Part shown: piece after piece, positions 1-16,317 of the stretch | How positions within the stretch are numbered: the stretch's first letter is position 1 | Layout of the letters: each line of letters opens with the position of its first letter | Virus record (IMG/VR): IMGVR_UViG_3300027797_000016 | Span: 1-64,000 of that record | Length of the DNA stretch: 64,000 bases | Strand: one strand, 5' to 3' | From: a virus | Translations under genes and position numbers: made by a program | Notes under the pieces: model-generated | Told to the model about the DNA's origin: nothing | The model's database searches: none | Seen by the model: only the letters and a program-made list of their open reading frames with translations

Positions 1-202
1 TATTTTGAGAAATTTTTTGTAGCAAATCTTAATTTACTACCGCATTATATATCAATACTATTAAAAATCCAATAGGCACCCACACAATTTTTGGATATCT
101 TATTACCCACCCTGCAAGTACAACTCTGTAGAAATTCCAGTAAGGTCTCCTACGATTATATCTGCGGGGGTTTCGAGGACTTATCATACTGCCGGAAAAA
201 TT

Positions 203-559
203 TTATCTATTTCTTATGTTTGTTGCTCTATCACACCATCTCAAATTCTTGATATCATTGTTCAGTTTATTTCTGTCTATATGATCTACTTCTGTATAAC
301 TGTGGATATTATCTAACAATGTTTCTACAATCAATCTATGAACATATTCTTTAATTTGGTAAAGGGTTTTGCCTTTTTCATTTTTAATGGATATATTAAC
401 AGAAGCATATTGTCGAGTATAAGCACCTCCTCGAAGAAATTGTTTAACCTCTATTAAATCTTTTTGATGCATACCATCAAAGAATTTATGCGGTTCTCTA
501 AAAACTTTACCATCCTCAGTGATATAATATCCTGCGAACTTTGTGAGGTGTTTTTTCAT
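203..559 (-). CDS. HNH endonuclease (NUMOD4/HNH type); likely start MKKHL at 559
   Basis: YYITEDGKVF N-terminus, YVHRLIVETL, VDHIDRNKLNN..NLRW HNH motif. Confidence 0.85.
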   Translation of the reverse strand: MKKHLTKFAGYYITEDGKVFREPHKFFDGMHQKDLIEVKQFLRGGAYTRQYASVNISIKNEKGKTLYQIKEYVHRLIVETLLDNIHSYTEVDHIDRNKLNNDIKNLRWCDRATNIRNR

Positions 560-699
560 ACTCCGGAAAAATTTTATGAAAGAGAGATATAGGTCGAAAA
601 AGACATACAGTGTAGGTTGGTAGGGACCCAAAAATAATAACGCCCCCCGCCCCGCAACGCCAAAATATAAACAATAAACAAACAATCAGGATACTGTCG

Positions 700-1060
700 A
701 ATAACGAATAACTCACTGACGACGAATAAGTGTTTTATTCGTGTTGTTTTATACTAATTGCCATTAAAAACACTCACAAACACACAAAACACCACGAATA
801 AACTATATTTTGTAGAGTTCTTTATACTAACTGCCACCATAAAGTGTAAGAAATATACAAAACACTACGAATAAACTATATTTTGTAGAGTTCTTTATAC
901 TAACTGCCACCATAAAGTGTAAGAAATATACAAAACACTAGAGTTCTTTATACTAACTGCCACCATAAAGTGTAAGAAATATACAAAACACTAGAGTTCT
1001 TTATACTAACTGCCATTAAAAACACTCACAAACACACAAAACACCACGAATAAACTATAA
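700..1060. repeat. Tandem repeat array A (units of 73, 73, 53, 53 bp)
   Basis: AGAGTTCTTTATACTAACTGCCA at 814, 887, 940, 993 and a degenerate copy near 741-763; ACGAATA at 704, 722, 794, 867, 1046. Confidence 0.95.
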
Positions 1061-1132
1061 AATCTCACGAAGATATAGACTTATGCTTACTGTTATGCCA
1101 GTGATCTAACAATTCTGCAATGTAATTCTATT

Positions 1133-1300
1133 TTACCATCGCTCATTGAGATCTTCAACATAACTTTCGATTGATTCATTAGACTCAAGATCAAAGAGTT
1201 TGTTCCAATCTATTTGATGTGGATTAAAATCACTCATCGCATCAATCTCCAACGTAATGCGATACTTATTCTTTTGTGCTAAGAGATACGAATGAGACAT
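1133..1300 (-). CDS. Small hypothetical protein, 55 aa (not in ORF track)
   Basis: Manual translation MSHSYLLAQKNKYRITLEIDAMSDFNPHQIDWNKLFDLESNESIESYVEDLNERW*. Confidence 0.7.
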   Translation of the reverse strand: MSHSYLLAQKNKYRITLEIDAMSDFNPHQIDWNKLFDLESNESIESYVEDLNERW

Positions 1301-1502
1301 AAGACGAAGAGAAGAATTAACTGCTTTAACGTAATCCTAAACGAACTTATCCTTTCTGTCAAGTTCTTTTCTTTACACGAAACTTGAGATACAACAATAT
1401 GACTCTTTATTACAAAAACTTATAAAGAGTTTAAACGAATTGAATTATAAACGAATATCTTCTACTTGTCAATGAGTGTATATGCTTCTATGAGAAAACA
1501 TT

Positions 1503-1898
1503 ATACGAAACTTCTTCAATAACGAATGAACTTTGAGACTCTTTATATCAAAAATGAATATAAGAATCTGTCATACGAAATCTTATCTAATAACGAATGA
1601 ACTTTGAGACTCTTTATATCAAAAATGAATATAAGAATCTGTCATACGAAATCTTATCTAATAACGAATGAACTTTGAAATCTTATTTCCTGTGTGCTGT
1701 TCTATTATAAGAAAGCATACGAAATCTTATCTAATAACGAATGAACTTTGAGATTCATTATGATTAGAATTGGATATAAGAAATTGAGTAGACGCAAAGT
1801 ATCTAATAACGAATGAATTGTATAAGACCTGATATCATATCAAAGATGATATGAGAATTCTTATACTTCAATTACCTAATAACGAATGAACTTGGCAC
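1503..1898. repeat. Tandem repeat array B: six copies of a ~38-bp core with 71-73 bp period
   Basis: CATACGAAATCTTATCTAATAACGAATGAACTTTGA(G/A)A at 1572, 1643, 1716; degenerate copies at ~1503, ~1788, ~1861. Confidence 0.95.
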
Positions 1899-2450
1899 AT
1901 CGAGAAACATATAGTTAAACTCTGTTCGCCTTTTATATGTTGAGTGGTAATATAAAGATACTTAGAAATCAGGATTTACAGGGAATCTTATGTGGTCCAT
2001 ATAAAAGTCTTATCTCATCGGGTAAACCGCCTATTGTGCTTTTTGGAATAAGATTGTGTATGTGCCCTGAGTGTAAGTATTCTCAGTTCATTTATTTATA
2101 CCACATCTTTTCCGTTTTGTCAAAGTATTGTTAAGATATTCAAATATAAGGTATAAGGTGTCTGCATACCTAAGAGAGTTTATAAGTGTGCTGTGAGGGC
2201 ATATAGAGGTGTCTGGGAGTGTTCTATAAGTATCATTGAATCCCTGTGAAATCTTATGTTTTTGGGAGTTCTGGGGGAATTGATTATACTCCCTCTCCTC
2301 CCACCCTATAAATCTAGCACGGTGGCGGTGAGACTTATGAGTCCAGTGTGCGGTCTGTGAAGTGTCTGTGTCTCATAAGTCTCAGGAATACATAGCAAAA
2401 AAGGTGCGAGACTCATAGTTCTTATGAGTCTTGTGAGTCTTATGTGTCCT

Positions 2451-2508
2451 TGTGCCAGTATTTTATGTGTCCGGGGGTGTTGACATTTTTGAGAAAGCGT
2501 GTTATAAT
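2451..2508 (+). promoter_or_regulatory. Perfect consensus sigma70 promoter with extended -10 and upstream box pair
   Basis: TTGACA 2480-2485, 17-bp spacer, TGnTATAAT (-10 at 2503-2508); TGTGCCAG...GTGTCC box pair at 2451-2472. Confidence 0.9.
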
Positions 2509-2540
2509 ACGTCGGCCAAGATCACTATAAGATCTCACAT

Positions 2541-2600
2541 TTATAAACACTCATAAACACTCATAAACACTCATAAACACTCATAAAGATTCATAAGAAT
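2541..2600. repeat. 10-bp tandem repeat (TCATAAACAC)n
   Basis: Four copies of ATAAACACTC followed by two degenerate copies. Confidence 0.95.
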
Positions 2601-2786
2601 ATCAAAAACACTCATCAACACACATAAAGACTTAATGATTATAAAGACTCTATGCGTTTAAAGACATAAAGTCTTTGTTTTACACTTTCTTTTTCATTTC
2701 ACGTTTTCCACAGGAGGAAAACTTTTACACCATACAACTTTCACACCATATAGATACAATCATTAGGTATAAGATATTAACAACCA

Positions 2787-3329
2787 ATGGAGACACGATT
2801 TAAGTTCTTGAATGAAATTGAAGGACTAGAAGATTTCACAAACTATGCAGTAGATACTCTAGGTAATGTTTGGTCCTTTAAGAATAATAAACAGAAAATA
2901 CTTAAACATAACTGGAGATATAAGAGTAAAGGCAACTCTTATGGTAAATGCATTGCTCTAATGAGTAATAAAGGAAAGAGAAAACCATTCACGATACAAA
3001 GATTAGTTGCTATTGCCTTTATTCCAACTGATGACACAAATCGTAAAGTCAGACACATTAACGGAGACTTAAATGATAACAGTGTGCCTAATCTAGAATG
3101 GACTTATCCTATTCCCAAAAGAAAAGAATCTGAATATAAACAAACAAAGGTTAAGGTAGACAACTTTATCATTGAAAAAGATTTACTGAATAAGATTAAA
3201 CAAGTTCACACTGCATCTATACTGAAAGGTTTACCAGTTCCTGATACAAATGCCTTTCTGAATAATATAGTTGAAGGATCATTGGATGAGTATATTATGA
3301 GATATGGATTAAGGCGTTTAATGATATAA
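2787..3329 (+). CDS. HNH endonuclease-like protein (NUMOD4/HNH)
   Basis: YAVDTLGNVWS, IQRLVAIAFIP, VRHINGDLNDNSVPNLEW; the only convincing plus-strand gene. Confidence 0.85.
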   Translation: METRFKFLNEIEGLEDFTNYAVDTLGNVWSFKNNKQKILKHNWRYKSKGNSYGKCIALMSNKGKRKPFTIQRLVAIAFIPTDDTNRKVRHINGDLNDNSVPNLEWTYPIPKRKESEYKQTKVKVDNFIIEKDLLNKIKQVHTASILKGLPVPDTNAFLNNIVEGSLDEYIMRYGLRRLMI

Positions 3330-3643
3330 GGATTCTGGATCAATCTCTTTCATAACTTTTGTATAAAGATCTATTGCTGCTTCATTACAATTATCTTCTT
3401 TAAGTTTGATGATATAATAATCAAGTGCCTCTACGATTGCTTGAGTTTTTAGTTCTTCCCACGTTGGTAATGTCATTGTTTATTCAGGATAGAGAATGTC
3501 GTTCACTATTTGGCGAAACTTATCTGCATCTACTACACATTCATAAGACAGTTGCGGATCTTCGATATCATACTGTTTCATCTCCAGAGTATGAATCACA
3601 TCATTCATAATTTCAGTCAATGCGAAAAGTTTGTCTGAGTCAG

Positions 3644-3844
3644 TCATGATGATTCAGGAATAAAAGTCTTTTCAGTGATCACATCAAACTCATCAGTCAT
3701 CTTTACATAATTCCATTCATCTTCATCCTCACCTTCTTGATAACAATGAATGATACCATCTTCATCTTGTTTTACATAGCAACCATCGTAATCTTCATCA
3801 TCATAAACATAACCATCTGCAATGAGTTGTTGAATGAAAGTCAT
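3644..3844 (-). CDS. Acidic hypothetical protein
   Basis: ORF track; in co-directional early array. Confidence 0.7.
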   Translation of the reverse strand: MTFIQQLIADGYVYDDEDYDGCYVKQDEDGIIHCYQEGEDEDEWNYVKMTDEFDVITEKTFIPESS

Positions 3845-3988
3845 TTGAGAATGTGCAAAAAAGAAAATGAGAGAGATTACCAGTCTCTCTCATATAATCA
3901 CCATACACCATTTGATTGAATTATTCATACTCTACGATGTCACTTTCTTGTATAGTAGAGGCGAACATCTTCCTCTCTGTATTATACT

Positions 3989-4402
3989 CTAAAAAGAAGA
4001 ACTAAACATATAACCATCTACAAAGTCAAAGTCATAATACAGATTTTGCTTCCAAGTTGCTTCCCAATCAATTACCAAATCAACAGGAAGATCATTATAC
4101 ATATTTTCGCTATAGTATTCTTCAGCAAAGTCAGCACCAGAATTATAAACTCCATAGTATGCTTCTTCAACGTGATCGACATAAGAAACATCACCGTGAT
4201 GTTCAATAAAAGTATCAACTACATCATAACCAATACTTTCACCAGTGCGAACATACTCATCATAATATGCAACAAAGGCATCCTCATTATAATCATCAAT
4301 GAACTTAAGAGCAGCATCTAAATCATACTCACCCTCTTCAATAAACTCTACGGTTTGGGGTTGAAGAACTTCTTTGTAATTAGCAGTTAAAGTGATAGTC
4401 AT
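3989..4402 (-). CDS. Acidic ArdA-like (antirestriction/DNA-mimic) protein, paralog 1
   Basis: Very acidic; AYYGVYNSGADFAEEYY...IDWEATW...GYMF resembles the ArdA C-terminal pattern; paralog of 11055..11489. Confidence 0.5.
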   Translation of the reverse strand: MTITLTANYKEVLQPQTVEFIEEGEYDLDAALKFIDDYNEDAFVAYYDEYVRTGESIGYDVVDTFIEHHGDVSYVDHVEEAYYGVYNSGADFAEEYYSENMYNDLPVDLVIDWEATWKQNLYYDFDFVDGYMFSSSF

Positions 4403-4443
4403 TTTGTTTGATGAGTGAGTGTGAATAAGTTTGTGTATGTGTA

Positions 4444-4650
4444 TCAGACCTTCATTTTTGCAAGATCTTTCATGCAGTTAGGCATCATCTCCTGAACATA
4501 CTCATAAAAGTAAGAGTTATTCATTGATGAAAGTTGTTGACGTTCTGCATCTTCGCTTCCATCAGTAAACTCTGACTCAGTATCAATCAGGCAGTCAATA
4601 TACCAGTCGATTAAGATTTGACGTTGTGCTTTAGTCAGGAAACTAGTCAT
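4444..4650 (-). CDS. Hypothetical protein
   Basis: ORF track; ATGA overlap with upstream gene. Confidence 0.7.
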   Translation of the reverse strand: MTSFLTKAQRQILIDWYIDCLIDTESEFTDGSEDAERQQLSSMNNSYFYEYVQEMMPNCMKDLAKMKV

Positions 4651-4859
4651 TTAGCAGACTTTACAAAAAGAGAATCCATTACACACAATGAAAGATCAAA
4701 AAGAACATCATCATCAACTTGTCCTAAAGTTGATATAATTGCATCAGGAACAACTTCATGTAGAAATTTTACCCAACGTTCATCATTAAGAATATACTCA
4801 ACAACTTCTGGCGCAAGAGCATCTGAAAGAGATTGAACTGTTTGATTTGAAAGTGCCAT
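4647..4859 (-). CDS. Hypothetical protein
   Basis: ORF track; in early array. Confidence 0.7.
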   Translation of the reverse strand: MALSNQTVQSLSDALAPEVVEYILNDERWVKFLHEVVPDAIISTLGQVDDDVLFDLSLCVMDSLFVKSAK

Positions 4860-5307
4860 TATTTTGAAGATTTGAGAATTGCCTGTGCGATCAGAAGTAA
4901 TTCATTACCATCAATTGCTTTTGACAGTAGATCAAGTTTAACTTTCTTTTTCATAATTAGTTGCCCATTACTTTGTCAAACATTGAATCATAAGCATCTT
5001 CACTTAACCAATCAGGAATCTCAGAACCAGAATGAAATTCAATCAGTGCTTGCAAAACTTCTACTTCTTCAATAGTGAATCGGAAAATCAATTCTTCTTT
5101 GTTCATTTCAGGCACCGATCAGTTGTTGAACTTCATCAAGAGACTTACATTGCCCTGCCTTAATTGCATTAGTAATTGAATAAGTCACAAACCCACATTG
5201 TTGAGTTGAAGGATCGCAAATTGCATATCCTTTCTCTTGAGTTTGAATGTCGAAAACAGTTTTAATCAGCATTGAATGTTGTGGTTTGGAGAAAAGAAAA
5301 GAATCAG

Positions 5308-5481
5308 TTAGACCAATGCAAGAGCATCTTTCTTTTGCCTTGGATTGGAAACTTGCTTCATCCAAGAAGACTTGCGATTGGAATTAAGTTGCGAAGGAAG
5401 TTTTTGTTTGCCTTGCACTTCATTGATAAGATCAATGAAGGAAAGAAAGAATTGACGTTCCATTCTTTGGGCGACAGACAT
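5308..5481 (-). CDS. Small hypothetical protein, 57 aa (not in ORF track)
   Basis: Manual translation MSVAQRMERQFFLSFIDLINEVQGKQKLPSQ...DALALV*; first ORF after a promoter cassette. Confidence 0.7.
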   Translation of the reverse strand: MSVAQRMERQFFLSFIDLINEVQGKQKLPSQLNSNRKSSWMKQVSNPRQKKDALALV

Positions 5482-5491
5482 TTGAAATTAG

Positions 5492-5602
5492 AATTAAGAT
5501 TGGGACTCGGGTGGGACAGGCACCCCTGCTCCCTCCACCCCTTTAATATACCACATTTTCAGGTCTGTGCCCGTTGAGTGTGCCAGCACAACAAGTGGCA
5601 CA
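5492..5602 (-). promoter_or_regulatory. Early promoter cassette (long subtype) with conserved 5' leader
   Basis: TGTGCCA-N10-TGGCACA palindrome 5579-5602, TGTGGTATATT extended -10, leader GTCCCACCCGAGTCCCAA. Confidence 0.85.
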
Positions 5603-5774
5603 AGGTATAAGAGACTCAGGTAAGATGCCCGAGAAAGTGGATGCCCTATAAGGTCGTTATATCCAGGATCGACCCATACCCCGCAGGGGACGCCAGACCG
5701 CCTCACAGGGGCACCTAGGGGGCGCTGACGGGCGTCTAGGGGGGGCGGTCAGGGGCACGGACACATTGGGGATA

Positions 5775-6020
5775 CTACTCACCTTGAGATTGGGATTCAA
5801 TATCCCAATGATGTTTCCAATCATAGTCTTCATAGTATCCACTTTTCACAATATCATCATAAACAGTGGGAAGATTATGAATCTTTGCTTTATCTCTATT
5901 TCGAAGTTCTACTTCATCATCTTGAATTATACCACCAAGTTGTTTGATTTCATTAAATGTCTTTGGTCTTCGATATGGGTAATAATCAGAAGAATTACCG
6001 TTGCGTTGAGTGTCTGACAT
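5775..6020 (-). CDS. Hypothetical protein
   Basis: ORF track; AAGGA Shine-Dalgarno upstream. Confidence 0.65.
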   Translation of the reverse strand: MSDTQRNGNSSDYYPYRRPKTFNEIKQLGGIIQDDEVELRNRDKAKIHNLPTVYDDIVKSGYYEDYDWKHHWDIESQSQGE

Positions 6021-6032
6021 AATTAAATTCCT

Positions 6033-6299
6033 TTACCAATCATACTTCCTGAACTGATCCTCTACATTTCCATCAGCATCAAACATTACATAAGCAACAT
6101 CATTGTATTGTTCCTTAATCAATTTCAGCAAATCTACCAAACAAGGGAGACTTTCTTCAATATAAAACTCATACATTTCTGGATCAGTATTCACCATAGA
6201 ACTAGTATCACTGTGAGTATAAGAAACCTTATCAACCTTTGGTCCCTCCAAAGGATGAAGATGTGCTGTTGAGAGTGTGAGGATTTTGGAGATTTCCAT
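6033..6299 (-). CDS. Hypothetical protein (LSTAH motif family)
   Basis: LTLSTAHL...YVMFDADG...YDW pattern seen in phage/plasmid hypotheticals. Confidence 0.7.
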   Translation of the reverse strand: MEISKILTLSTAHLHPLEGPKVDKVSYTHSDTSSMVNTDPEMYEFYIEESLPCLVDLLKLIKEQYNDVAYVMFDADGNVEDQFRKYDW

Positions 6300-6301
6300 A
6301 T

Positions 6302-6538
6302 TTAGTGAGTGTTAAGAACGTGAACAAAATCCAGGGAGACTACACACCAACCAGTGGCATCTGTCACCTCTTCGACTAGAGCATCAGCAACTTCCCCATC
6401 ATCATTTTCATTGTCAACTTCCACCTCAAAGACATTACCAAGCACAGAATCTATCACAGATTGTTGGTGTTCGAGAGTGAAATCTTCATCATCAAAATCA
6501 AACAGAACTTCAGTAACTTGTAGAGTGAGAGTAGTCAT
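6302..6538 (-). CDS. Acidic hypothetical protein
   Basis: ORF track; TDATGWCV motif. Confidence 0.7.
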   Translation of the reverse strand: MTTLTLQVTEVLFDFDDEDFTLEHQQSVIDSVLGNVFEVEVDNENDDGEVADALVEEVTDATGWCVVSLDFVHVLNTH

Positions 6539-7167
6539 TAGAAACGGATAACAGGGTGGTTTACATCAAGAACATCTTGAGTATTGTCTACAAAGACTAA
6601 CCCAACATCCAGTTGATAATACTCATCAAGAAGATCATTCCAGATAGCAACATCCTGATTGAGTTGTTCTTCGTTAAGTTTTTGAAGTTCGGCAAGAAGT
6701 TCTTTGTAAGTCATTTTGTTTGTGAAAGAATGGTGACTTCAGTAACGTCGGGGTTTGACTTTAACAGTCGATTGAGTAATCGTTTTCGGTTTTCTAAAGA
6801 GTTGATGATAACTTCTTCAGCAACTGTATCTTCATAAGAGAACCTAACTTTGTAAATCATCTCAGTGAGTGTTAAGAATGTGGTGTGGGATTACAGTTGA
6901 GACAGCACCCACATCATTGCAGAAACTTCTTCTTTACTATTCCAACCATTTACATCTTCAGTCATATTTCCATTTGGTCTTATGATTGCAACCTCATAAG
7001 TATTCTCATTGATGTTGCCATAAAGACCACAATTTGGTGGTCCAGCAACTACAGAAATCTCCCAATCATTTTCAAATACATGCCTTGCTGCAATCGCATT
7101 TGGAATACCATTTAGGTGTGGTTGAAAGTTGAGAAGATCAAACATTGGAAGAAAAGGTAAAAAGAAT

Positions 7168-7743
7168 TTAGTTAAACAGTTTGGCACAGATAGGTCCAAT
7201 TCCCATTTGTACTGAGAGAGGATCATTCAGTGTGCGACCACAAATCGAACAAGATCCAGATTCGTGCCCGTAAATCTTTGCAAGTTGCATAAGATTTTCA
7301 TTAGCGTCTTCCAGAAGATTTTTAACATCTTCAGAAGCATTGCCAATCAACTCACCGTTATGAGTGATTTTAGCAACATATTGCCTGTTTTCATAAACAT
7401 AAACACAACCAATGTTTTGTCCTTGATTTACGGTTGAAAGAGTGATACCAGGCAGTCGCACTTGAAACTTACTGCGCTTTGCACCTGCACTATACATTTT
7501 CGTCACCAGATCATAATACTCACCGCGAATAGCAGGAGTTTCTGCATCAATCACATCTTGAGTTGCAAGATAGTGCATCCAGGCAATTTGATTCACACTT
7601 GCTTTCTTTTTATCAAGCAAATCATTCACAAAAGTATTATAGTTCATTTCCTTTGCAAGATACTGCTTAACATCTTCCAGAGACTCAAACTTGCTCTCAA
7701 AGTTGATGTCTTGACCTTTTTTAACAACAGTGAAAGAATTCAT
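7168..7743 (-). CDS. DUF6011-like zinc-finger protein
   Basis: C-terminal CSICGRTLNDPLSVQMGIGPICA. Confidence 0.75.
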   Translation of the reverse strand: MNSFTVVKKGQDINFESKFESLEDVKQYLAKEMNYNTFVNDLLDKKKASVNQIAWMHYLATQDVIDAETPAIRGEYYDLVTKMYSAGAKRSKFQVRLPGITLSTVNQGQNIGCVYVYENRQYVAKITHNGELIGNASEDVKNLLEDANENLMQLAKIYGHESGSCSICGRTLNDPLSVQMGIGPICAKLFN

Positions 7744-7759
7744 GAGAAGAAATAAACAA

Positions 7760-7853
7760 TGGGACTCGGGTGGGACTTGCTCCCTCCACTCCTTAAGAAT
7801 ACCACAATTAAGTCGCTGTGCCCGTTGAGTGTGCCAGTGGTATTAGTGGCACA
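7760..7853 (-). promoter_or_regulatory. Early promoter cassette (long subtype)
   Basis: Near-identical to 9203-9297; palindrome 7830-7853. Confidence 0.85.
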
Positions 7854-8416
7854 TCTCAACACTGGACTCACTGATTGTTGGATATAATATCAGCAATCGT
7901 GTAAAGTGTATTTGCGGTTATAGTCTTAACTTGATGAGAAAAAATAAATGCAAGTGCAAAGACAACAAGTATCATTTTCATCTTATTTGGTGCCTTGAAT
8001 GTAAGAGTTTTAGTTTTCATCAGGCACAGACTTTTGTAAGAGGTTTGAAGTCATAACCATAATTACCTTCAACTGCCTCATAAACAATTACATTTTCACC
8101 AGACAGTTCTACACTCCAATTCATTGCATCTTCTTTTGCATCATAAAGATCATCGTGCCATTCGGCATCTTCTAGATCAAAACTTACAGGACAAATAACA
8201 AACATTGGAATGTAGAATAGAGGACTTTTTAACAGAAAAAAGAATGAATCAACCTTCAGCGTTTTCTTGATTCACTTCATTTTGATCAGGAACAATTACA
8301 TTTAGAATCTCCAGAAGTTGAGTTCCAGTTGCACCGTTGCGAAGCATATCAAGCATCATGTCGCGGGAGAAATCAACAGTCATTTGAGTTAGAATTAAGT
8401 TGGAAGTTTGTGAAGG

Positions 8417-8495
8417 GGCGGACCTCTCCACCCCTTAAGAATACCACATTTTCAGGTCTGTGCCCGTTTACTGTGCCAGTGGTATTAGTGGCACA
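8417..8495 (-). promoter_or_regulatory. Early promoter cassette (long subtype)
   Basis: Palindrome 8472-8495, TGTGGTATTCT -10. Confidence 0.85.
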
Positions 8496-8503
8496 GGGCA
8501 TCA

Positions 8504-9178
8504 TCAAACTCCGCAGAGTTGACGTTGTTGACTACCTGATGCTTGGCGATGCAAAGAAACACCAGCACCTACAACACTACCAGAATAAGCACCTTCACCG
8601 CTTGCACCATTCATTCTACGAGCGCGACCAAATCGCATTGTAGAAAGTTTGCTACTCACTGCTTTTGCATCATCGTGAACTCGATTTTCTTCTTCTTTCA
8701 TTTCACGCAGACGCAGTGCAACTTTATCTGCAAATGCCTTGCGGAAATTAAGTTTGAAGGACCGAGATACAGATTTACCAGTAATGTCTGCCATTACTTT
8801 TTCTGCTTGATGTGCGACTTCTGCCTCTTTCTCCATCACCTGAACCAGATAATCATAATAGAGACGCACTTGGATTTGTTGTGCCTCACTACCAATGATT
8901 TGTAGAGATTTTACATCGCCATTTTTCATATATGCTTTTGCATCATAGAAAGTTGCAATCGCATTGAGAAGAGTCGTAAGTGCAACATTCACACGTTTGA
9001 AATTGATGAATGACTCATCAAGAACTTGAGTTTCAGTTGCCTCAGTAATCGTAATTCCATACTGTTTACACAGTTTATCAATTAAATTTGCGGCAGCAGA
9101 TGCTTCCCCATCAAAAGAAGTTCCCTCTTGAAGTTTGAGAATTGATTGAATCTTTGCAATAATTTGCTTGCGATCCAT
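8504..9178 (-). CDS. DUF2786-like domain protein
   Basis: IIAKIQSILKL...GEASAAANLIDKLCKQYGI N-terminus; SFKLNF..AF..V..RL. Confidence 0.75.
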   Translation of the reverse strand: MDRKQIIAKIQSILKLQEGTSFDGEASAAANLIDKLCKQYGITITEATETQVLDESFINFKRVNVALTTLLNAIATFYDAKAYMKNGDVKSLQIIGSEAQQIQVRLYYDYLVQVMEKEAEVAHQAEKVMADITGKSVSRSFKLNFRKAFADKVALRLREMKEEENRVHDDAKAVSSKLSTMRFGRARRMNGASGEGAYSGSVVGAGVSLHRQASGSQQRQLCGV

Positions 9179-9202
9179 AATGAAAAAAATAAAGAATTAA
9201 GA

Positions 9203-9297
9203 TTGGGACTCGGGTGGGACCTGCTCCCTCCACTCCTTAAGAATACCACAATTAAGTCGCTGTGCCCGTTTAGTGTGCCAGCACAACAAGTGGCACA
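9203..9297 (-). promoter_or_regulatory. Early promoter cassette (long subtype)
   Basis: Palindrome 9274-9297 plus shared leader. Confidence 0.85.
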
Positions 9298-9317
9298 CGG
9301 TATATGAGACTCAACCT

Positions 9318-9651
9318 TCAAAAATTGTAATCGTGAAACTTTTCCCAACCACCCTGAAGAACAGAAGATTGAGAACCTGTCATCACAAACTTTTGAGGAT
9401 TCTTACGATAAGTGAACTTTCTCACAACTCCATTTACATCATCACTAAACTCCCATTGTTGAGAGTGTTGATTGCTGCAATGTCCTGCAAATCCACCTGC
9501 TTCAATTTCAGGTTTCCAATCAGGATGTAGAGTTGCTTGAGAGTCTCGAACTGATATAGTCTTAGGTGTAATTTTAATCACCACACCAGGAAATATATCA
9601 CTACCAATAGAGTAATGAACTCGATCATTAACTAGAAAAGTGTCAGTCATT
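9318..9651 (-). CDS. Hypothetical protein (probable start MTDTF)
   Basis: ORF track; YSIGSDIFP...FHDYNF. Confidence 0.7.
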
Positions 9652-9900
9652 TCAGTTGTTCTGTAGAACATCCTCAAGCAGCAGTTTGTGAATACGATCT
9701 GCCTCTATAAGTTCATCTTCATCCAGTTCATCCCACTCTACCCAATCATAGGCAGATCCTGCGGTTTCATAAGAACCGTCAGGCAACAGATTAGCATACA
9801 TCAGCACTCGTTGATTGTTGGCATCCAGTTTATAGGTGCAACCATTGAGTTGAGAGATGACAAAAACCATTTGATTAAAGAATAAAGAATGAGACTTGAA

Positions 9901-9983
9901 TGGGACCAGACCCCTCCACTCCTTAAGAATACCACATTCAAGTCTCAGTGCCCGTTTACTGTGCCAGTGCTACAAGTGGCACA
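9901..9983 (-). promoter_or_regulatory. Early promoter cassette overlapping the 3' end of ORF 9956..10387
   Basis: Palindrome 9960-9983. Confidence 0.85.
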
Positions 9984-10387
9984 TTGCTGATGTAGTTTTG
10001 GATCAAATCCGTGGTAGTAATGTATTTGCCATCCTTACCCAGATAAGCAACATCAACCTCAACACCATCACGACTATCAATACTGGCGGATTTAATCTCC
10101 ACAAATCGAGATGTCATCACAGGAACAAATTGATCCACCAACCAATCCCAAACCTCACTATTACTATTATATTCTTCAGTATCACATTCAATCAAAATGA
10201 CATCATCATTTTGGTGAACATAAGCACCGAAATCTACATCGACTTTACCATTCTCTTCACCAAACTCATCAAAGATAGAGTTTTGCTCTTCTACACATCG
10301 AACTGAAATAGCATCCAAATAAGATTGAAGATTGAATCCATCAACAACCGTAAGAGTGGCAGTAGAAACAAATTGAGTGTAAGACAT
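9956..10387 (-). CDS. Acidic hypothetical protein
   Basis: ORF track; C-terminus VPLVALAQ* is encoded by the promoter palindrome. Confidence 0.7.
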   Translation of the reverse strand: MSYTQFVSTATLTVVDGFNLQSYLDAISVRCVEEQNSIFDEFGEENGKVDVDFGAYVHQNDDVILIECDTEEYNSNSEVWDWLVDQFVPVMTSRFVEIKSASIDSRDGVEVDVAYLGKDGKYITTTDLIQNYISNVPLVALAQ

Positions 10388-10799
10388 TGAGATTTTGTTT
10401 GTATGAGTGTATTATAGGGCATTTGATGCCCTTATGGGGGGGTTCTGTGCCACTAGAAGAAGTGGCACATCCATTAGTAAGAATATGCGGAACTTACATA
10501 ATCATCATATGCTGCTTCGCCATATCCTTCATTGATGTTGTCAAGAACTTCATCATTAGAAGGAAGTTCTTTATCTACTAGATTCCAGTAGTAAAGAACA
10601 GTTTCTAGTGCAAGTTTATCATCAAGTTCCCACCATTCATAATCGTAAGTAGGATAGAGTGGATCTACTGGAGTATTTGCAAGGTTTGCCTTGACAGTTT
10701 TTGCATTATCTAAAACATCAAGATAATCAAGAAAATCTTGAGGAAGATTCTTCCAATTTTCTTGAGTTTCAGGATAGTCGATAGTTTGACGAGTCATGA

Positions 10800-11051
10800 T
10801 TAAACCTCTGCAAATGGATTGGCAAGTTGTGGAATTGTATTAAATCCAACAACTTCATACGGAATGGGAATGTTATTGAGATACTCTCGAATCTCAAGAT
10901 CCATCTCAACTCGATTGAGAAACTTTTTGGATTGAGTTTTCCCCATAAAAGTGAGAGTTTTCAAGTACCACTCTTTAGATACATCACCGAATGGTGTTTT
11001 GATGGGGTAGAAATCCACCATCATATTACCATCTTTGGATTGAAGTTTCAT
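10800..11051 (-). CDS. Hypothetical protein
   Basis: ORF track. Confidence 0.7.
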   Translation of the reverse strand: MKLQSKDGNMMVDFYPIKTPFGDVSKEWYLKTLTFMGKTQSKKFLNRVEMDLEIREYLNNIPIPYEVVGFNTIPQLANPFAEV

Positions 11052-11054
11052 AGT

Positions 11055-11489
11055 TTAGAATTGAGTATCGAAAACAAATCCATTGGAATAAACACAGTCA
11101 AGATTATCGAAAGTGTTTTCCCAATCAACCTCAACACAACTAGGAATGTCAAGGCAATAGCAAGAACTCACAAAGTCTTCTGCATAGTCTGCTTTAGAAC
11201 TCCATTCGCCACGGTAGGCGTCCTCAAAACCACTAAGAGAATCAACACCAAACTCCTCAATGAAAACATCGACTGCTTCATAAGAATTAGATTCTCCTGC
11301 CTCCACATACTCATCGTAATGATCGCAGAAAGCAGTATCTCCATATTCTTGAATGAAAGCAATCATATCATCAATGAAGAAGTTTTCTTCAAGATAGGAT
11401 TCAATCTTTTCTACAATAGATTCACCCAAGAACTGATTATAGTTCTCGCTTGTGAGATTGGAATAATCAACAGCGTAGGTCGAAGTCAT
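11055..11489 (-). CDS. Acidic ArdA-like protein, paralog 2
   Basis: AYRGEWSSKADYAEDFV...VDWENTF...NGFVF. Confidence 0.5.
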   Translation of the reverse strand: MTSTYAVDYSNLTSENYNQFLGESIVEKIESYLEENFFIDDMIAFIQEYGDTAFCDHYDEYVEAGESNSYEAVDVFIEEFGVDSLSGFEDAYRGEWSSKADYAEDFVSSCYCLDIPSCVEVDWENTFDNLDCVYSNGFVFDTQF

Positions 11490-11579
11490 AGAAGTTATGT
11501 GAGGTTGAATGTGATGAAGTTAGATAACAGCATACTTGCCAAGATGTCAGTTGACGTTATCAAGGTGGTCTTACTGCCT

Positions 11580-11653
11580 CCTTCACCACCCCTTTAATAT
11601 ACCACATTTTGAGGTCTGTGCCCGTTTACTGTGCCAGCACAACAAGTGGCACA
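11580..11653 (-). promoter_or_regulatory. Early promoter cassette (long subtype)
   Basis: Palindrome 11630-11653. Confidence 0.85.
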
Positions 11654-11720
11654 AGGGAACCTTTAATAAGACAAATCCTTATTAAAGGATACGTTCCGCT
11701 TGCATAAGTGGCACAAGGCA

Positions 11721-12956
11721 TCACTTACTGGTCGTGGTGATACAAGGTTCGCCGCGAGTAAAAATAGTATCTACAACTGCTTGCACTTTGCGAGCAGTTG
11801 AAATACCTACAGAGTTGTAGACTGGAATCACACAGAGAGCAAATGACTTGGTGTATTGATGTAGTGCTCCAGGTTGAATCCTACCCTCAGCAAGACCTTT
11901 AGCATCATCGTGATGCAACCTAACAACTCTTCCAATCGTTTGAGCAATTGAAGTATAGTCCATGGGGCGCATAAAGATGACTGCTTCTAGACCAGAAACA
12001 GAAATACCTTCGCTGATGATAGAGTGATGAATAACGACAAACTTCTTGGAGTTATCCTTCCCCCAAGCATTAAGTGTATCAAAAAACAATTCACGATTGA
12101 CTTTTTTACCATCAATGATTGCTCCTGTTTTACTCGTAATGACCATCCAAGAGTATCCACGTTCTTCTAGTTCTTTACAGAACTCAGTCTCACTAATCAA
12201 ACCAATGATTTGTTTGGTTGTTTTAGCACAGATAAGTGCCTTACCTACTTGATAATCATCAAGAGTTTCGATAAGATTATCAGCATCTCGATCAAAGATA
12301 ACCTGACGACCTTGAACCATTGGTAGTTGCTTCACTTCTACTTTGGGTGGAACAATATAACCACCTTGAACCATCTCAGGACCAGAAACATTTGCAATAA
12401 TCTGTCCGTAAACTTCAGTCCAATTCATACCTGGTTTACCAATGACAGTAGAGTTCTTTGGTGTTGCAGTGTAAGAATAAAATCGCTTTGCAGTCTTGGA
12501 GAAGTGCTCTACAGCAGGAAAGAAATGTTTCTGTATGCTATTATGTGCCTCATCCAGATGAATAGTATCAACCTCAATCTCAGCATCAACAAGACGTTGA
12601 AGAGAGTGATAGGTTGTGAAAATCAGTTTGTGAGAGGAGTTATGACTCCCGACCCAATTGTAGATTTCAAGAGGACGTGTAGAGGATTCCCAGCGTGTTT
12701 CTCCACTGTGAACGTGAAATACTTTTGCATTAGTGATAAACTCCAGATACTCGTGAGAGAGTTGCTCTGCCAGCAAAATCCTTGGAGAAACTACAACAAC
12801 AGTCTTGGGAGTTTCTGTCTCAAACTGTCGCATTGTATCAACAATACCTACAAGAGTTTTACCTGCACCAGTTACGGCACAGATAATACCTTTGTTATAT
12901 TTTTGCATTGCATCAACAGATCGTTGTTGATGTTCACGAAGGTGCAGTTGCATCAA
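11721..12956 (-). CDS. Superfamily 2 DEAH helicase (ResIII-like)
   Basis: LREHQ Q-motif, TGAGKT Walker A, LDEAH Walker B, TATP motif III, QTIGRVVR motif VI. Confidence 0.92.
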   Translation of the reverse strand: MMQLHLREHQQRSVDAMQKYNKGIICAVTGAGKTLVGIVDTMRQFETETPKTVVVVSPRILLAEQLSHEYLEFITNAKVFHVHSGETRWESSTRPLEIYNWVGSHNSSHKLIFTTYHSLQRLVDAEIEVDTIHLDEAHNSIQKHFFPAVEHFSKTAKRFYSYTATPKNSTVIGKPGMNWTEVYGQIIANVSGPEMVQGGYIVPPKVEVKQLPMVQGRQVIFDRDADNLIETLDDYQVGKALICAKTTKQIIGLISETEFCKELEERGYSWMVITSKTGAIIDGKKVNRELFFDTLNAWGKDNSKKFVVIHHSIISEGISVSGLEAVIFMRPMDYTSIAQTIGRVVRLHHDDAKGLAEGRIQPGALHQYTKSFALCVIPVYNSVGISTARKVQAVVDTIFTRGEPCITTTSK

Positions 12957-14919
12957 TTAACTTCCAATAGAAATATTGTAGCACACTTTGCGGTGTGCTA
13001 CAGGTGTGAGTGTGCCAGTTAAAAAATTGGTCTTGATATTATGAAGAGTGGAAAAGATATTCTATTTTTTATTACCTAAAACTCACATTTGCTCCCACAA
13101 CTTTACAAGATGGATTTCGCACTTTGGCGGTTTCTTTAGCTTCTTTTACATCATTAGCATAAACTTCCTCTGTGAAAGTTTGTCCGCCCTGATATAAAGT
13201 TACGATATATTTCATAGTAGATCAGTTGCGATTTTTACGTTGTTGATTGTGGCGATAAGATGCAGATGGGTCGGGATCATAAATTCCACCACCGATTGCG
13301 AGAGTAATCATAATTCAAAGAATACAGAAGGAACCACAGAACTTACGAACCCATTGCAGGGTATCATAATAACCGCGAGGATTAGACATTACCATACTCA
13401 CATTCTTTTCAGGATTGAAAGCAATAGCAACATACTTATAAACATCATAAGATTCCTCAATCTCTTCAATCCACATTTGATTGACTTTACCTTCTTTCCA
13501 GTTGGTTGTGTAGTGAAAAAGCATGGTATGCATTAGTTTGCTGCCAAAATTAAATGTGCTACTCTATTCTCAGGAACAAAATCCTGAAGTTTATCATTTA
13601 GCATTTCAAACTGTTGTGCCATATTGAAATAGTATGCTGCCAGAGTATAATTCTCGGCATCATCCAAACTATCTGCCATCTTGATAAGTTGAGTGATAAT
13701 ATCCAACAACTCACCAGATGTGAATGAAATCGAAGTCATTTTACGTTGAGTTTGAGTTTGAGTGCTTTGAGCGATTGCTTCCTTGCTTTGAGTTGTCCCT
13801 TGCAAGTTCCTTTTGTATTCTTTTGTTTACCAGAGTTATGAACCCAATTTGGAGTTGGCACAACTCATTTCACCTCTGAACTGCGTTCATCATAGCACCT
13901 CTTGGGGTGTCGCAGGGGATTACTGTGCCACCCCAAGAAGTGGCACAGATTTATTTTAGTATTTCTTTAATGTCTTGAGTGTAAGTTATTTTAATCTAAT
14001 CCAAGTGCAGTGGTGAGTTTTTGAAGTGTTTCTCTGGTGATAATATCTTCTTCCAGTTCTTCAGGAGTTGCAATACTTAAATACATCTCATATGCTTCAT
14101 TCCAAAAATCTTGTGATGGGATTTTACCAAGATAAGACTTTTGTTTTTTACTGTGATAATCCCAAAAGTCATCGCAGTTAATCTTAGTCATTTCAGTTGT
14201 CCTTCAGCGATGTGATTGAGAATGTTGCGGGCATACTTCATAAAGTCATATGCAGACACATTACCATTGTAATTCTCAACACAATACCCATCAAGAACAT
14301 CAGAACCGTTGTAAGTGTTGACAATCAGCAAGCAAGCATCATAGAGTGCTGCCTGGTGCTCTTCTTTAGAATGAAACTGAATTGCGTTATAAGAGGGAAG
14401 CATAATAATCAGTTGGTAGGTTCAGTAATCCATACAGCACGGTCAGTTCCCATTCTAAATGAATGGTCCCAAATGAAATGAGTTGCTTGTTGATTCGACA
14501 TAGCAAACTCTTTCATAAAGAAATGAACTGCTTGAGTAAGAGTCTCAAACCGATGTGTTTGTTTCATTTGATATCAAAAAGGTTGAATAGATCGCGTTGA
14601 GTTTGAGTAAAGAGAGTATCAGGTTCAGGATAGTTATGAACTACCTCCTGAAGGTCTTTATACACATAAAGCATATCTTGCAGAACAAGAAGTTGCTTTT
14701 CAGTCAGGATGTCTTCAATCATTAGAACTTTATCAAGCATAGTTTCAGTAGTCAGTTCCATCATTTTCACATCGTTGAATCCAATAAGAATAGCACGGAA
14801 AGTTTTGTGGGCGGTCTGGTTGTCGTTGATACCAATTAAATGCAAGATTCAATCGGTTTTCTGGCACCTGCAAATACGGAATGTAAGACAGATGTGGTGT
14901 GTAGGTCATTGGGTGCTCT

Positions 14920-14989
14920 CTTCACCCTTTAAGAATACCACATTTAAGTCGCTGTGCCCGTTTAGTGTGCCAGCACAACAAGTGGCACA
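14920..14989 (-). promoter_or_regulatory. Early promoter cassette (long subtype)
   Basis: Palindrome 14966-14989. Confidence 0.85.
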
Positions 14990-15345: not shown

Positions 15346-16317
15346 TTAACTGAAAAATGAAGTGAGATTATTATTTGATTTTTTACATTCTTCTATTGCT
15401 TCAGTTACAAGTCTAATTGACTGTTGGTTAATATCTAAAGTCATACAATTTCTTTCTAAAAGGTTTGAAGCAATTGCAGTAGTTCCAGAACCAGCAAAAG
15501 GATCCAAAACCCAACCATTTATAGGACAAGATGATTTTACAATTCTTTCTAATAATTTAAGTGGTTTTTGTGTTGGATATTTGCGTTTGTTTGTTTCACT
15601 TCTTGAAATGAAATAAACATCATCCCATAGATTTTGGACTGGAACACCTTTATTGTCATCAAGATAGATTTTCTTGTAAATCATATTTTTTCCAAAGTGA
15701 AGAAGATTATTATTATCCATTTCTTTCAACATATCTTCACTCACTCTCCAACCATAAGTTGGTTTGTATCCTTTATATTCAAAGTCTCTGCCTGGACGAC
15801 TTTTTTCACCTGTAGTTTTAGCAAGAGCATAATAACCTCTTTCATCTTGGTTTTTGAAACTATTTTTCTCATATTTTTCATCAAGATCAACATATTCCAC
15901 TTGAAAGTATGGATTACCTTTTCTCAAAACCATAATACTATCTACAATGTTTCCCCAACCATTTTTGATATTATTTTTTGGACCACTCCTTTTCCAAGAG
16001 ATATTAGTATAAAAAGCATTTCTAACTTCTTCCTTTACTTTGGATAAAACAAGTGCATTACCAATAAAGTTATTATGTAAATACATCCATCCATTTTTAT
16101 TCAAAACAGACCATCCTTTATTGATAATATCAGCATACCAATCAATATAGTCATCAAAGGACTTCCAGTTGTCTGAAAATCCTTTTTCTTCACCATCTTG
16201 CTCCAACATCTTAAAGTCTCTTTGTAATCCAAAGGGAGGGTCCATATAAATCAAATCAAATGTTTGATTTAAGGTATTGATAGTTTCGGCAGATTGATTA
16301 AGAATGTTAATAGACAT
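15346..16317 (-). CDS. N6-adenine/N4-cytosine DNA methyltransferase (beta class)
   Basis: LIYMDPPF catalytic motif before YPTQKP..LLERI and VLDPFAGSGTT SAM-binding motif. Confidence 0.93.
   Translation of the reverse strand: MSINILNQSAETINTLNQTFDLIYMDPPFGLQRDFKMLEQDGEEKGFSDNWKSFDDYIDWYADIINKGWSVLNKNGWMYLHNNFIGNALVLSKVKEEVRNAFYTNISWKRSGPKNNIKNGWGNIVDSIMVLRKGNPYFQVEYVDLDEKYEKNSFKNQDERGYYALAKTTGEKSRPGRDFEYKGYKPTYGWRVSEDMLKEMDNNNLLHFGKNMIYKKIYLDDNKGVPVQNLWDDVYFISRSETNKRKYPTQKPLKLLERIVKSSCPINGWVLDPFAGSGTTAIASNLLERNCMTLDINQQSIRLVTEAIEECKKSNNNLTSFFS

Follow-up and report, generated by a model that had tools for sequence, protein, structure and literature searches.

A conserved array of phased two-box units upstream of the early gene orf55 in T4-like cyanophages, with a putative role in early transcription

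The window analysed here is a 64-kb stretch of DNA (64,000 nucleotides), the opening part of a single 105,059-bp virus record, IMG/VR record IMGVR_UViG_3300027797_000016. PHROG matches to baseplate hub, wedge and tail-fibre proteins, together with the small gene orf55, assign it to a T4-like cyanomyovirus. Nearly all genes of the record lie on the minus strand, and the region described below is also best read on that strand; alternative genetic codes were tried, and the standard code fits. Upstream of orf55, at about 1290–1935, lies a row of repeats referred to as array 2. Comparison with related contigs indicates that array 2 is a strongly conserved, previously undescribed cis-element; no described origin or array of this kind in cyanophages was found in the literature. 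We give about an even chance to the reading in which array 2 represents phased, operator-like docking sites for one putative sequence-specific DNA-binding protein governing the early promoters of orf55; we infer both the protein binding itself and the sign of the regulation (repression or activation). Both in the sea and in lakes, T4-like cyanophages belong to the most abundant viruses. To our knowledge, they lack the MotA/AsiA switch of T4, and neither an origin nor an early-gene regulator is known for them.

Array 2 and its conservation

An earlier note on this DNA, made from the letters alone, had drawn attention to the pentamer ACGAA recurring at steps of 71–74 bp; all the positions it listed are right except 1378, which should read 1377. 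Between 700 and 1900 there are 22 copies of ACGAA on the plus strand (read as TTCGT on the minus strand, the coding one), at positions 704, 722, 794, 867, 1046, 1067, 1288, 1304, 1341, 1377, 1435, 1451, 1505, 1522, 1575, 1593, 1646, 1664, 1719, 1737, 1809 and 1882. These 22 copies in 1.3 kb compare with a contig median of one per 1.3 kb (about 20-fold enrichment) and with a single copy of the reverse complement (strand bias 22 versus 1). The partner box that the note had placed 16–18 bp upstream exists at seven sites (704/722, 1288/1304, 1435/1451, 1505/1522, 1575/1593, 1646/1664 and 1719/1737), and seven of the eight TTCGT-N10-14-TTCGT pairs in the 105-kb contig are located at this locus, all on the minus strand. 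The main ACGAA series of array 2 advances by 73, 74, 71, 71, 71, 73, 72 and 73 bp. A periodicity test of array 2 alone gave p ~0.017; the comparative data for the array are much stronger than this test.

Array 2 comprises six units recognisable by profile (1502–1932) and three degenerate in-phase positions. Its core (1501–1785, minus strand; Tandem Repeats Finder (TRF) period 71, 3.9 copies; also found by nhmmer) consists of four canonical two-box units of 71–73 bp with the core sequence TTCATTCGTTATTAGATAAGATTTCGTAT. Two of these four are a recent extra duplication: compared with its closest relatives, loci L007 and L008, the window has an insertion of 143 bp here, the length of two units. 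Since L007 and L008 have two units fewer than the window, copy number changes by whole units. At 1788–1933, on the same strand, two older units keep the first box alone (ACGAA at 1809 and 1882; nhmmer E 7e-13) and are conserved in both closest relatives. In an anchored alignment of 72 distinct units, the unit consensus is an A-tract followed by TCATTCGTGATTAGATAAGATTCGTAT, at 1.3–2.0 bits per position, with a weak TAwwAT 17 bp past TAGATA; the core of about 28 bp, in the same range of information content, is nearly invariant. Adjacent units are 93% identical in the core, whereas their spacers show 61% identity against a shuffled baseline of 58%; the unit length is still 69–73 bp. Since substitutions are saturated in the spacers and their length has not drifted, the spacing is under selection, and both box sequence and spacing are selected. 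The earlier note had come to the same view of the spacing, as expected for phased protein-binding sites, and the alignments bear it out.

Relatives were gathered through orf55, which gave 53 IMG/VR loci. The motif TTCGT-N11-14-TYCGTA is present in 38 of them, 33 of which have two to four copies at steps of 69–73 bp. Each of the 38 loci contains one to four two-box units (mostly two to four); without exception these lie upstream of orf55 on its own strand, and none is on the other strand. Counted by contig, one to four units of the form TTCGTGATTAGATAAGATTCGT at 69–73 bp steps are found in about 45 IMG/VR contigs. Independently of the orf55 search, the 22-nt two-box core was scanned against 2.9 million viral contigs and matched 44 of them; in 43 of 43 checked contigs an orf55 homologue follows downstream on the same strand, and the last canonical unit is 167–225 bp from its ATG. 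The check for the same period in relatives, suggested by the earlier note, gave steps of 69–73 bp in 30 distinct related arrays, with 72 bp in 34 of 48 steps. L007 and L008 can be aligned with the window across the whole non-coding region, with a mean column identity of 84%, gaps included. In the contigs of four relatives, 71–156 kb in size, box pairs are clustered at this locus alone, and control counts equal those of the scattered matches elsewhere.

No nucleotide match to the region was found in cultured phages among 50,697 phage records, and the 22-nt two-box core gave one chance match (in a Sphingobacterium), with none in a cyanobacterium, among 185,579 prokaryote genomes. Homologues of orf55 are present in Synechococcus and Prochlorococcus myoviruses alone. 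The gene is present and the box array absent in S-SM2, Bellamy, SynMITS9220M01, S-SCSM1, RN05-S and P-TIM68; TTGACA-type promoters precede orf55 in S-SM2, Bellamy, SynMITS9220M01 and S-SCSM1, the four for which upstream DNA was inspected. Repeats resembling TGTGGAAAA are located upstream of the orf55 homologues of S-SM2 and S-SCSM1. Numerous metagenomic contigs stop within the arrays or close to them, the present one among them, and the array accounts for the breakage of these phages' assemblies at this site.

Promoters of orf55 and the putative role of array 2

The conserved early gene orf55 (1133–1300, minus strand; phrog_12516, E 8.6e-21) encodes an acidic protein of 55 aa and is located between array 2 and a second repeat row, array 1. 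It is the sole gene strictly linked to array 2. In the upstream units of array 2, the boxes bracket a −35-like TAGATA. The promoter unit P1 (1435–1472, minus strand), with the box pair TTCGTTTATAATTCAATTCGT, follows 71 bp past the last canonical unit; it contains a TTGACA-17-TATAAT promoter (12/12; 1472–1444 in the promoter scan), the −10 hexamer of which lies between two TTCGT boxes. This arrangement is common: 26 of 30 distinct arrays have, 69–72 bp past the last canonical unit, TTCGTnTATAAT(N4–5)TTCGT as the next in-phase unit, with a perfect −10 between two boxes. In locus L018, the boxed −10 slot holds TATAAATA, a T4-type late core, instead. The scan also found promoter P2 (TTGACA-17-TAGGAT; 1334–1362, minus strand), whose counterparts in relatives match 10–12 of 12 consensus positions; a promoter matching at least 10 of 12 lies between P1 and orf55 in 26 of 28 loci. 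One more box pair, TTCGTCTTATGTCTCATTCGT (1288–1308, minus strand), lies across the start codon of orf55 in phase with the array; it is found in L007 and L008 too, and the continuation of the phase as far as this pair is a feature of this lineage. The other strong promoters of the contig have no box.

The boxes of the two unit types take different positions relative to the −35 and −10 elements, and nothing but the phase and the geometry from box to box stays constant; a separate binder therefore fits better than contacts made by RNA polymerase. The array is, in turn, coupled in a fixed phase to the sigma-70-type promoters of a single small gene, which points to transcription control. In the proposed mechanism, each site would be composed of two direct WTTCGTK boxes 16–18 bp apart, and recurrence at 69–73 bp, about seven helical turns, would place the bound proteins on roughly one face of the DNA, making cooperative binding possible. 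The boxes of the upstream units would bracket TAGATA and those of the last in-phase unit TATAAT, with a near-consensus sigma-70 promoter and orf55 coming next, and a protein seated on them would cover −35 or −10 elements. In the simplest version, the binder would shut off, or less likely switch on, a battery of promoters for host RNA polymerase all together.

Several points weigh against such a docking array. A Pfam search with 150 open reading frames (ORFs) of the early region yielded no helix–turn–helix (HTH) or ribbon–helix–helix (RHH) family, but NUMOD3 of homing endonucleases and DNA methylases alone. The flanking genes encode homing endonucleases, small membrane or basic ORFs and the orphans phrog_1574/2626, and no binder was found among them. 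The orf55 product is acidic, and its AlphaFold2 model (predicted local distance difference test, pLDDT, 79) is mostly coil, almost without secondary structure; a Foldseek search of this model against the PDB gave no match, and an atlas search returned 'hypothetical protein' alone. We know of no dedicated repressor in T4-like phages. The box spacing of 16–18 bp (centre-to-centre, about 1.6 turns), combined with the 72-bp repeat, is unlike any characterised operator array. Finally, the IMG/VR contigs represent perhaps 8–12 lineages, not 45 independent samples. As a candidate for the binder, orf55 itself was rejected, being acidic and having a model with almost no secondary structure and no fold match.

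A replication origin is an unlikely explanation, if the best placed of the others. The boxes would then be initiator iterons, or they would organise a promoter-coupled origin (an R-loop origin like those of T4); the AT-rich stretch around orf55 would serve for unwinding. In favour of this, the locus is unique in each genome and contains many same-strand direct repeats and one inverted copy, as in iteron plasmids, and 1301–1900, at 28% GC, is one of the stretches with a lower GC content. Judging by synteny with S-SM2, Bellamy and S-SCSM1, the position of the locus is immediately upstream of the baseplate module, and T4 oriE is situated among baseplate genes; the strong early promoters at the locus are also reminiscent of oriE, which needs an early promoter and contains repeats at an even spacing (PMC3016281). 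However, no initiator gene was found among the flanking genes or the 150 early ORFs, and orf55 has no BLAST similarity to T4 RepEA or RepEB. The 72-bp spacing is far from the usual two-turn spacing of iterons (about 22 bp). A look at the skew, as proposed in the earlier note, did not favour an origin, GC skew falling steadily across the contig with no turning point at the array locus. Boxes of the DnaA type are not enriched: the 64-kb window has one exact TTTTCCACA (2704–2712, plus strand) and 60 one-mismatch matches, compared with 62 expected. The 'iterons' of T4 oriE are themselves 24-bp-spaced repeats in the coding sequence of gene 5, and their role is unproven (PMC3016281). The sole exact box of the cyanobacterial DnaA type falls in the non-coding region discussed here; one site is within chance expectation.

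It is also improbable that the units are a plain tandem battery of early promoters, or decoys, in which host RNA polymerase alone would recognise a core of A-tract, TAGATA and TAwwAT with no extra factor. The units do fit TAGATA-17-TAwwAT with the A-tract at the distal UP-element position, and a perfect TATAAT is found at that place in at least one unit of most arrays; many sigma-70 early promoters in T4-type phages are organised in cassettes (promoter early stem–loops, PeSLs; PMC2839356). Nevertheless, the best-conserved bases are those of the two TTCGT boxes, which occupy UP and spacer positions, while the −10 has just 0.4–0.7 bits; the same boxes take other promoter coordinates in the promoter unit, and the contig's other strong promoters do without them. 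It is likewise doubtful that a wrapped nucleoprotein complex is assembled on the array, in which a phage or host protein polymerising on two-box sites seven turns apart would switch the orf55 promoters and also mark a promoter-coupled origin.

An RNA element, in which the transcribed array would act as a repeated leader or a protein or RNA sponge, or would be cut into units of about 72 nt, has little probability. All boxes are on the transcribed strand, there are promoters upstream, including a promoter-like site near 2283–2312 (promoter scan) and a late core at 2093–2100, and some spacers are able to form hairpins. On the other hand, RNAalifold predicted 0 pairs, with no consensus structure or covariation in 42 units; the best stems measure 3.5 bp, as against 3.35 bp in shuffled sequence; and scans of 1–6000 and 1–4000 for tRNA/tmRNA (ARAGORN, 0) and Rfam families (0 at E up to 1) were empty. 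Boxes that bracket −10 and −35 hexamers, moreover, represent a DNA-level geometry. A packaging (pac) site or a physical genome end is very improbable: contigs do end in or near the arrays, as mentioned above, but assemblies break at tandem repeats in any case, and a repeat is also where this contig stops at its other end; the link of the locus is with a promoter and not with terminase genes, and T4-type phages package by headful from permuted concatemers, as stated for T4 (PMC3016281, PMC4122927). The earlier interpretation of the locus stands as regards selected phased sites; its label of origin or packaging locus is not supported, no initiator, no terminase and no cluster of DnaA boxes being linked to the locus. 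A CRISPR-like array was rejected, the spacers being orthologous between relatives and partly alike within arrays and the last 'repeat' being a promoter; no Cas family is present among the 14 Pfam families matched by the 150 early-region ORFs of the window.

For the preferred docking array, the cis-element has the advantage of being single-copy and of following clear rules, namely the box sequence, the pairing at 16–18 bp, the phasing at about 72 bp and the boxed −10. A 22-bp oligonucleotide would be enough for fishing out the binder. Its identification would provide a first handle on the timing of early transcription, or on the start of replication, in these phages, as well as a role for orf55, a widespread orphan gene.

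Array 1 and the surroundings of the locus

Array 1 (740–1072, minus strand; TRF periods 73 and 53; families D2 and D4) consists of five units of 73 or 53 bp that are 98–100% identical. The box is carried by the 73-bp units alone; since the 53-bp units lack ACGAA, its steps in array 1 are 72, 73 and 179 bp. The tandem form of array 1 is found in this lineage alone, with five units in the window and two in L007 and L008; in distant relatives, the region is single-copy, with irregularly spaced boxes. Array 1 is a recent lineage-specific tandem duplication, and the equal period of both arrays is consequently weak evidence for a common constraint. The real link between the arrays is the common box, conserved on both sides of orf55. 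The arrays had been described as sharing ACGAA and being otherwise dissimilar; ACGAA is indeed shared, and the likeness goes further, to the extended box WTTCGTK.

Downstream of orf55, a conserved box cluster (700–746, minus strand) comprises two direct TTCGT boxes and an inverted one, which form CACGAATAA..TTATTCGTG (ACGAA at 704 and 722, TTCGT at 738; inverted repeats I1–I3). The CACGAATAA..TTATTCGTG block is kept in L007, L008, L016, L018, L023 and L036; in more distant relatives, two further boxes and an AT-rich run come after it. A very basic, K/R-rich ORF of about 45 aa with two Cys is located after this block in L036 (4637–4775) and L016 (about 4643–4780). The slot varies: L007 has a different basic ORF of 27 aa, the ORF is truncated in L023, and the window has an HNH gene there. 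Odd as it is, the tiny basic ORF varies too much among relatives to be the box binder.

A T4-type late promoter core, TATAAATA, is located in the non-coding region upstream of array 2 (2093–2100, minus strand) and is conserved in L007 and L008. The window contains seven copies of this core, all on the minus strand. Late transcripts from the 2093–2100 core would read through array 2; the core may produce a late non-coding transcript or the baseplate operon's leader. A TATAAATA copy is likewise present upstream of the arrays of L036 and L023, where a conserved TTGAAyTyTCCTACGGG element comes after it.

The three largest gaps without ORFs of at least 50 aa in the window all fall within 717–2786. 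The region had been singled out as the largest non-coding stretch, which holds for these gaps; it is not wholly non-coding, since orf55 is a real gene. ORF65 (1937–2134, plus strand) is not conserved as a frame and contains frame-breaking indels relative to L007 and L008. The HNH homing endonuclease gene next to array 1, outside the arrays (203–685, minus strand; PHROG HNH families, E 1.9e-19), is an insertion relative to L007 and L008, where it is absent from the same place; it is bordered by repeated CCGGAAAAATTTTAT (about 190–215 and 560–585). Homing endonuclease genes occupy the edges of the conserved non-coding region, with two HNH genes here (203–685 and 2787–3329) and a GIY-YIG/NUMOD3 gene in L036 (2256–2936). 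As such genes sit at its edges in different relatives, the region looks like an insertion hot spot for homing endonucleases.

A perfect TTGACA-17-TATAAT promoter with a TG extension (2480–2632 region, plus strand) faces the HNH gene at 2787–3329. Its leader of about 270 nt contains nine 10-bp repeats ATAAACACTC (2543–2632), similar to the AAAACACAC runs within array 1 (family D1). Between divergent promoters, a cluster of CTTATGAGTC, GAGTC and GACTC repeats (GANTC sites) is found at 2330–2450, and a hairpin with a 14-bp stem at 2405–2435. There are 16 GANTC sites in 600–2800, about three times the contig mean, and other windows are equally rich; the phage encodes an N6_N4 DNA methylase (15346–16317).

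Dispersed early cassettes occur on the minus strand at 5492–14989 (for example, at 5492, 7760, 8417, 9203, 9901, 11580 and 14920). They are built of a GTGCCAC..GTGGCAC-type hairpin, AACGGGCACAG..TGTGGTATTCT and a G-rich leader, in this order, are unrelated in sequence to the TTCGT units and look like this phage's version of the PeSL promoter–terminator cassettes. The record is a fragment, and its far end stops within a collagen-like repeat gene: a minus-strand gene with tandem repeats encoding collagen-like GPP/GGP (period about 186 bp) occupies 104800–105059. The assembly probably broke on this repeat, leaving the genome incomplete.

Comparison with known systems

C repressors of the P2 family bind operators whose half-sites are direct repeats lying across the −10 of an early promoter in P2 and W-phi and across its −35 in P2 Hy dis (PMC2995052). 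These half-sites are non-palindromic, and both are needed for cooperative binding (PMC2995052, PMC1904268). Here too, two direct half-sites span the −10, as TTCGTnTATAAT(N4–5)TTCGT in 26 of 30 arrays, or the −35-like TAGATA. The P2-type half-sites, however, are two to three turns apart (22 bp in P2) instead of 16–18 bp, and form one operator instead of a 72-bp phased row of three to seven. The P2 phages are temperate, with the repressor gene alongside, whereas the present phage is of the lytic T4 type, with no HTH or RHH family found in the flanking genes or the 150 early ORFs.

Iteron origins contain direct repeats bound by an initiator, usually of 17–22 bp with a spacing of about two turns. 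Those of P1 (incC/incA), RK2 and R6K, as well as the 12-nt repeats of T4 oriE, resemble the array in having same-strand direct repeats at a single locus, with some overlap with a promoter and an inverted copy; the differences are that no Rep gene was found here, the spacing is 72 bp and not about 22 bp, and the sites are two-part. T4 oriE depends on an early promoter (PMC3016281). Its repeats, unlike array 2, are spaced at 24 bp within a coding sequence and have no proven function. Another row of direct repeats, cooperatively coated and enclosing the promoter of the neighbouring operon, is seen in ParR/parC of plasmid R1 and in the heptad arrays of the omega repressor. These repeats, by contrast, are contiguous (7–11 or 20 bp), without variable spacers of 44 bp; they function in partition, and the operon itself encodes the binder.

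The PeSLs of T4-type phages are units of about 70 bp that combine a sigma-70-like promoter with an upstream A-rich tract and are repeated in hyperplastic early regions, promoting the insertion and deletion of whole units there (PMC2839356, PMC4122927). Array 2 shares with them promoter-like units of about 70 bp and the A-rich tract. Unlike the PeSLs, which are dispersed between genes and have a G/C-rich terminator hairpin, the units of array 2 are arranged head-to-tail at one locus with no genes between them and no conserved hairpin, and carry the TTCGT boxes.

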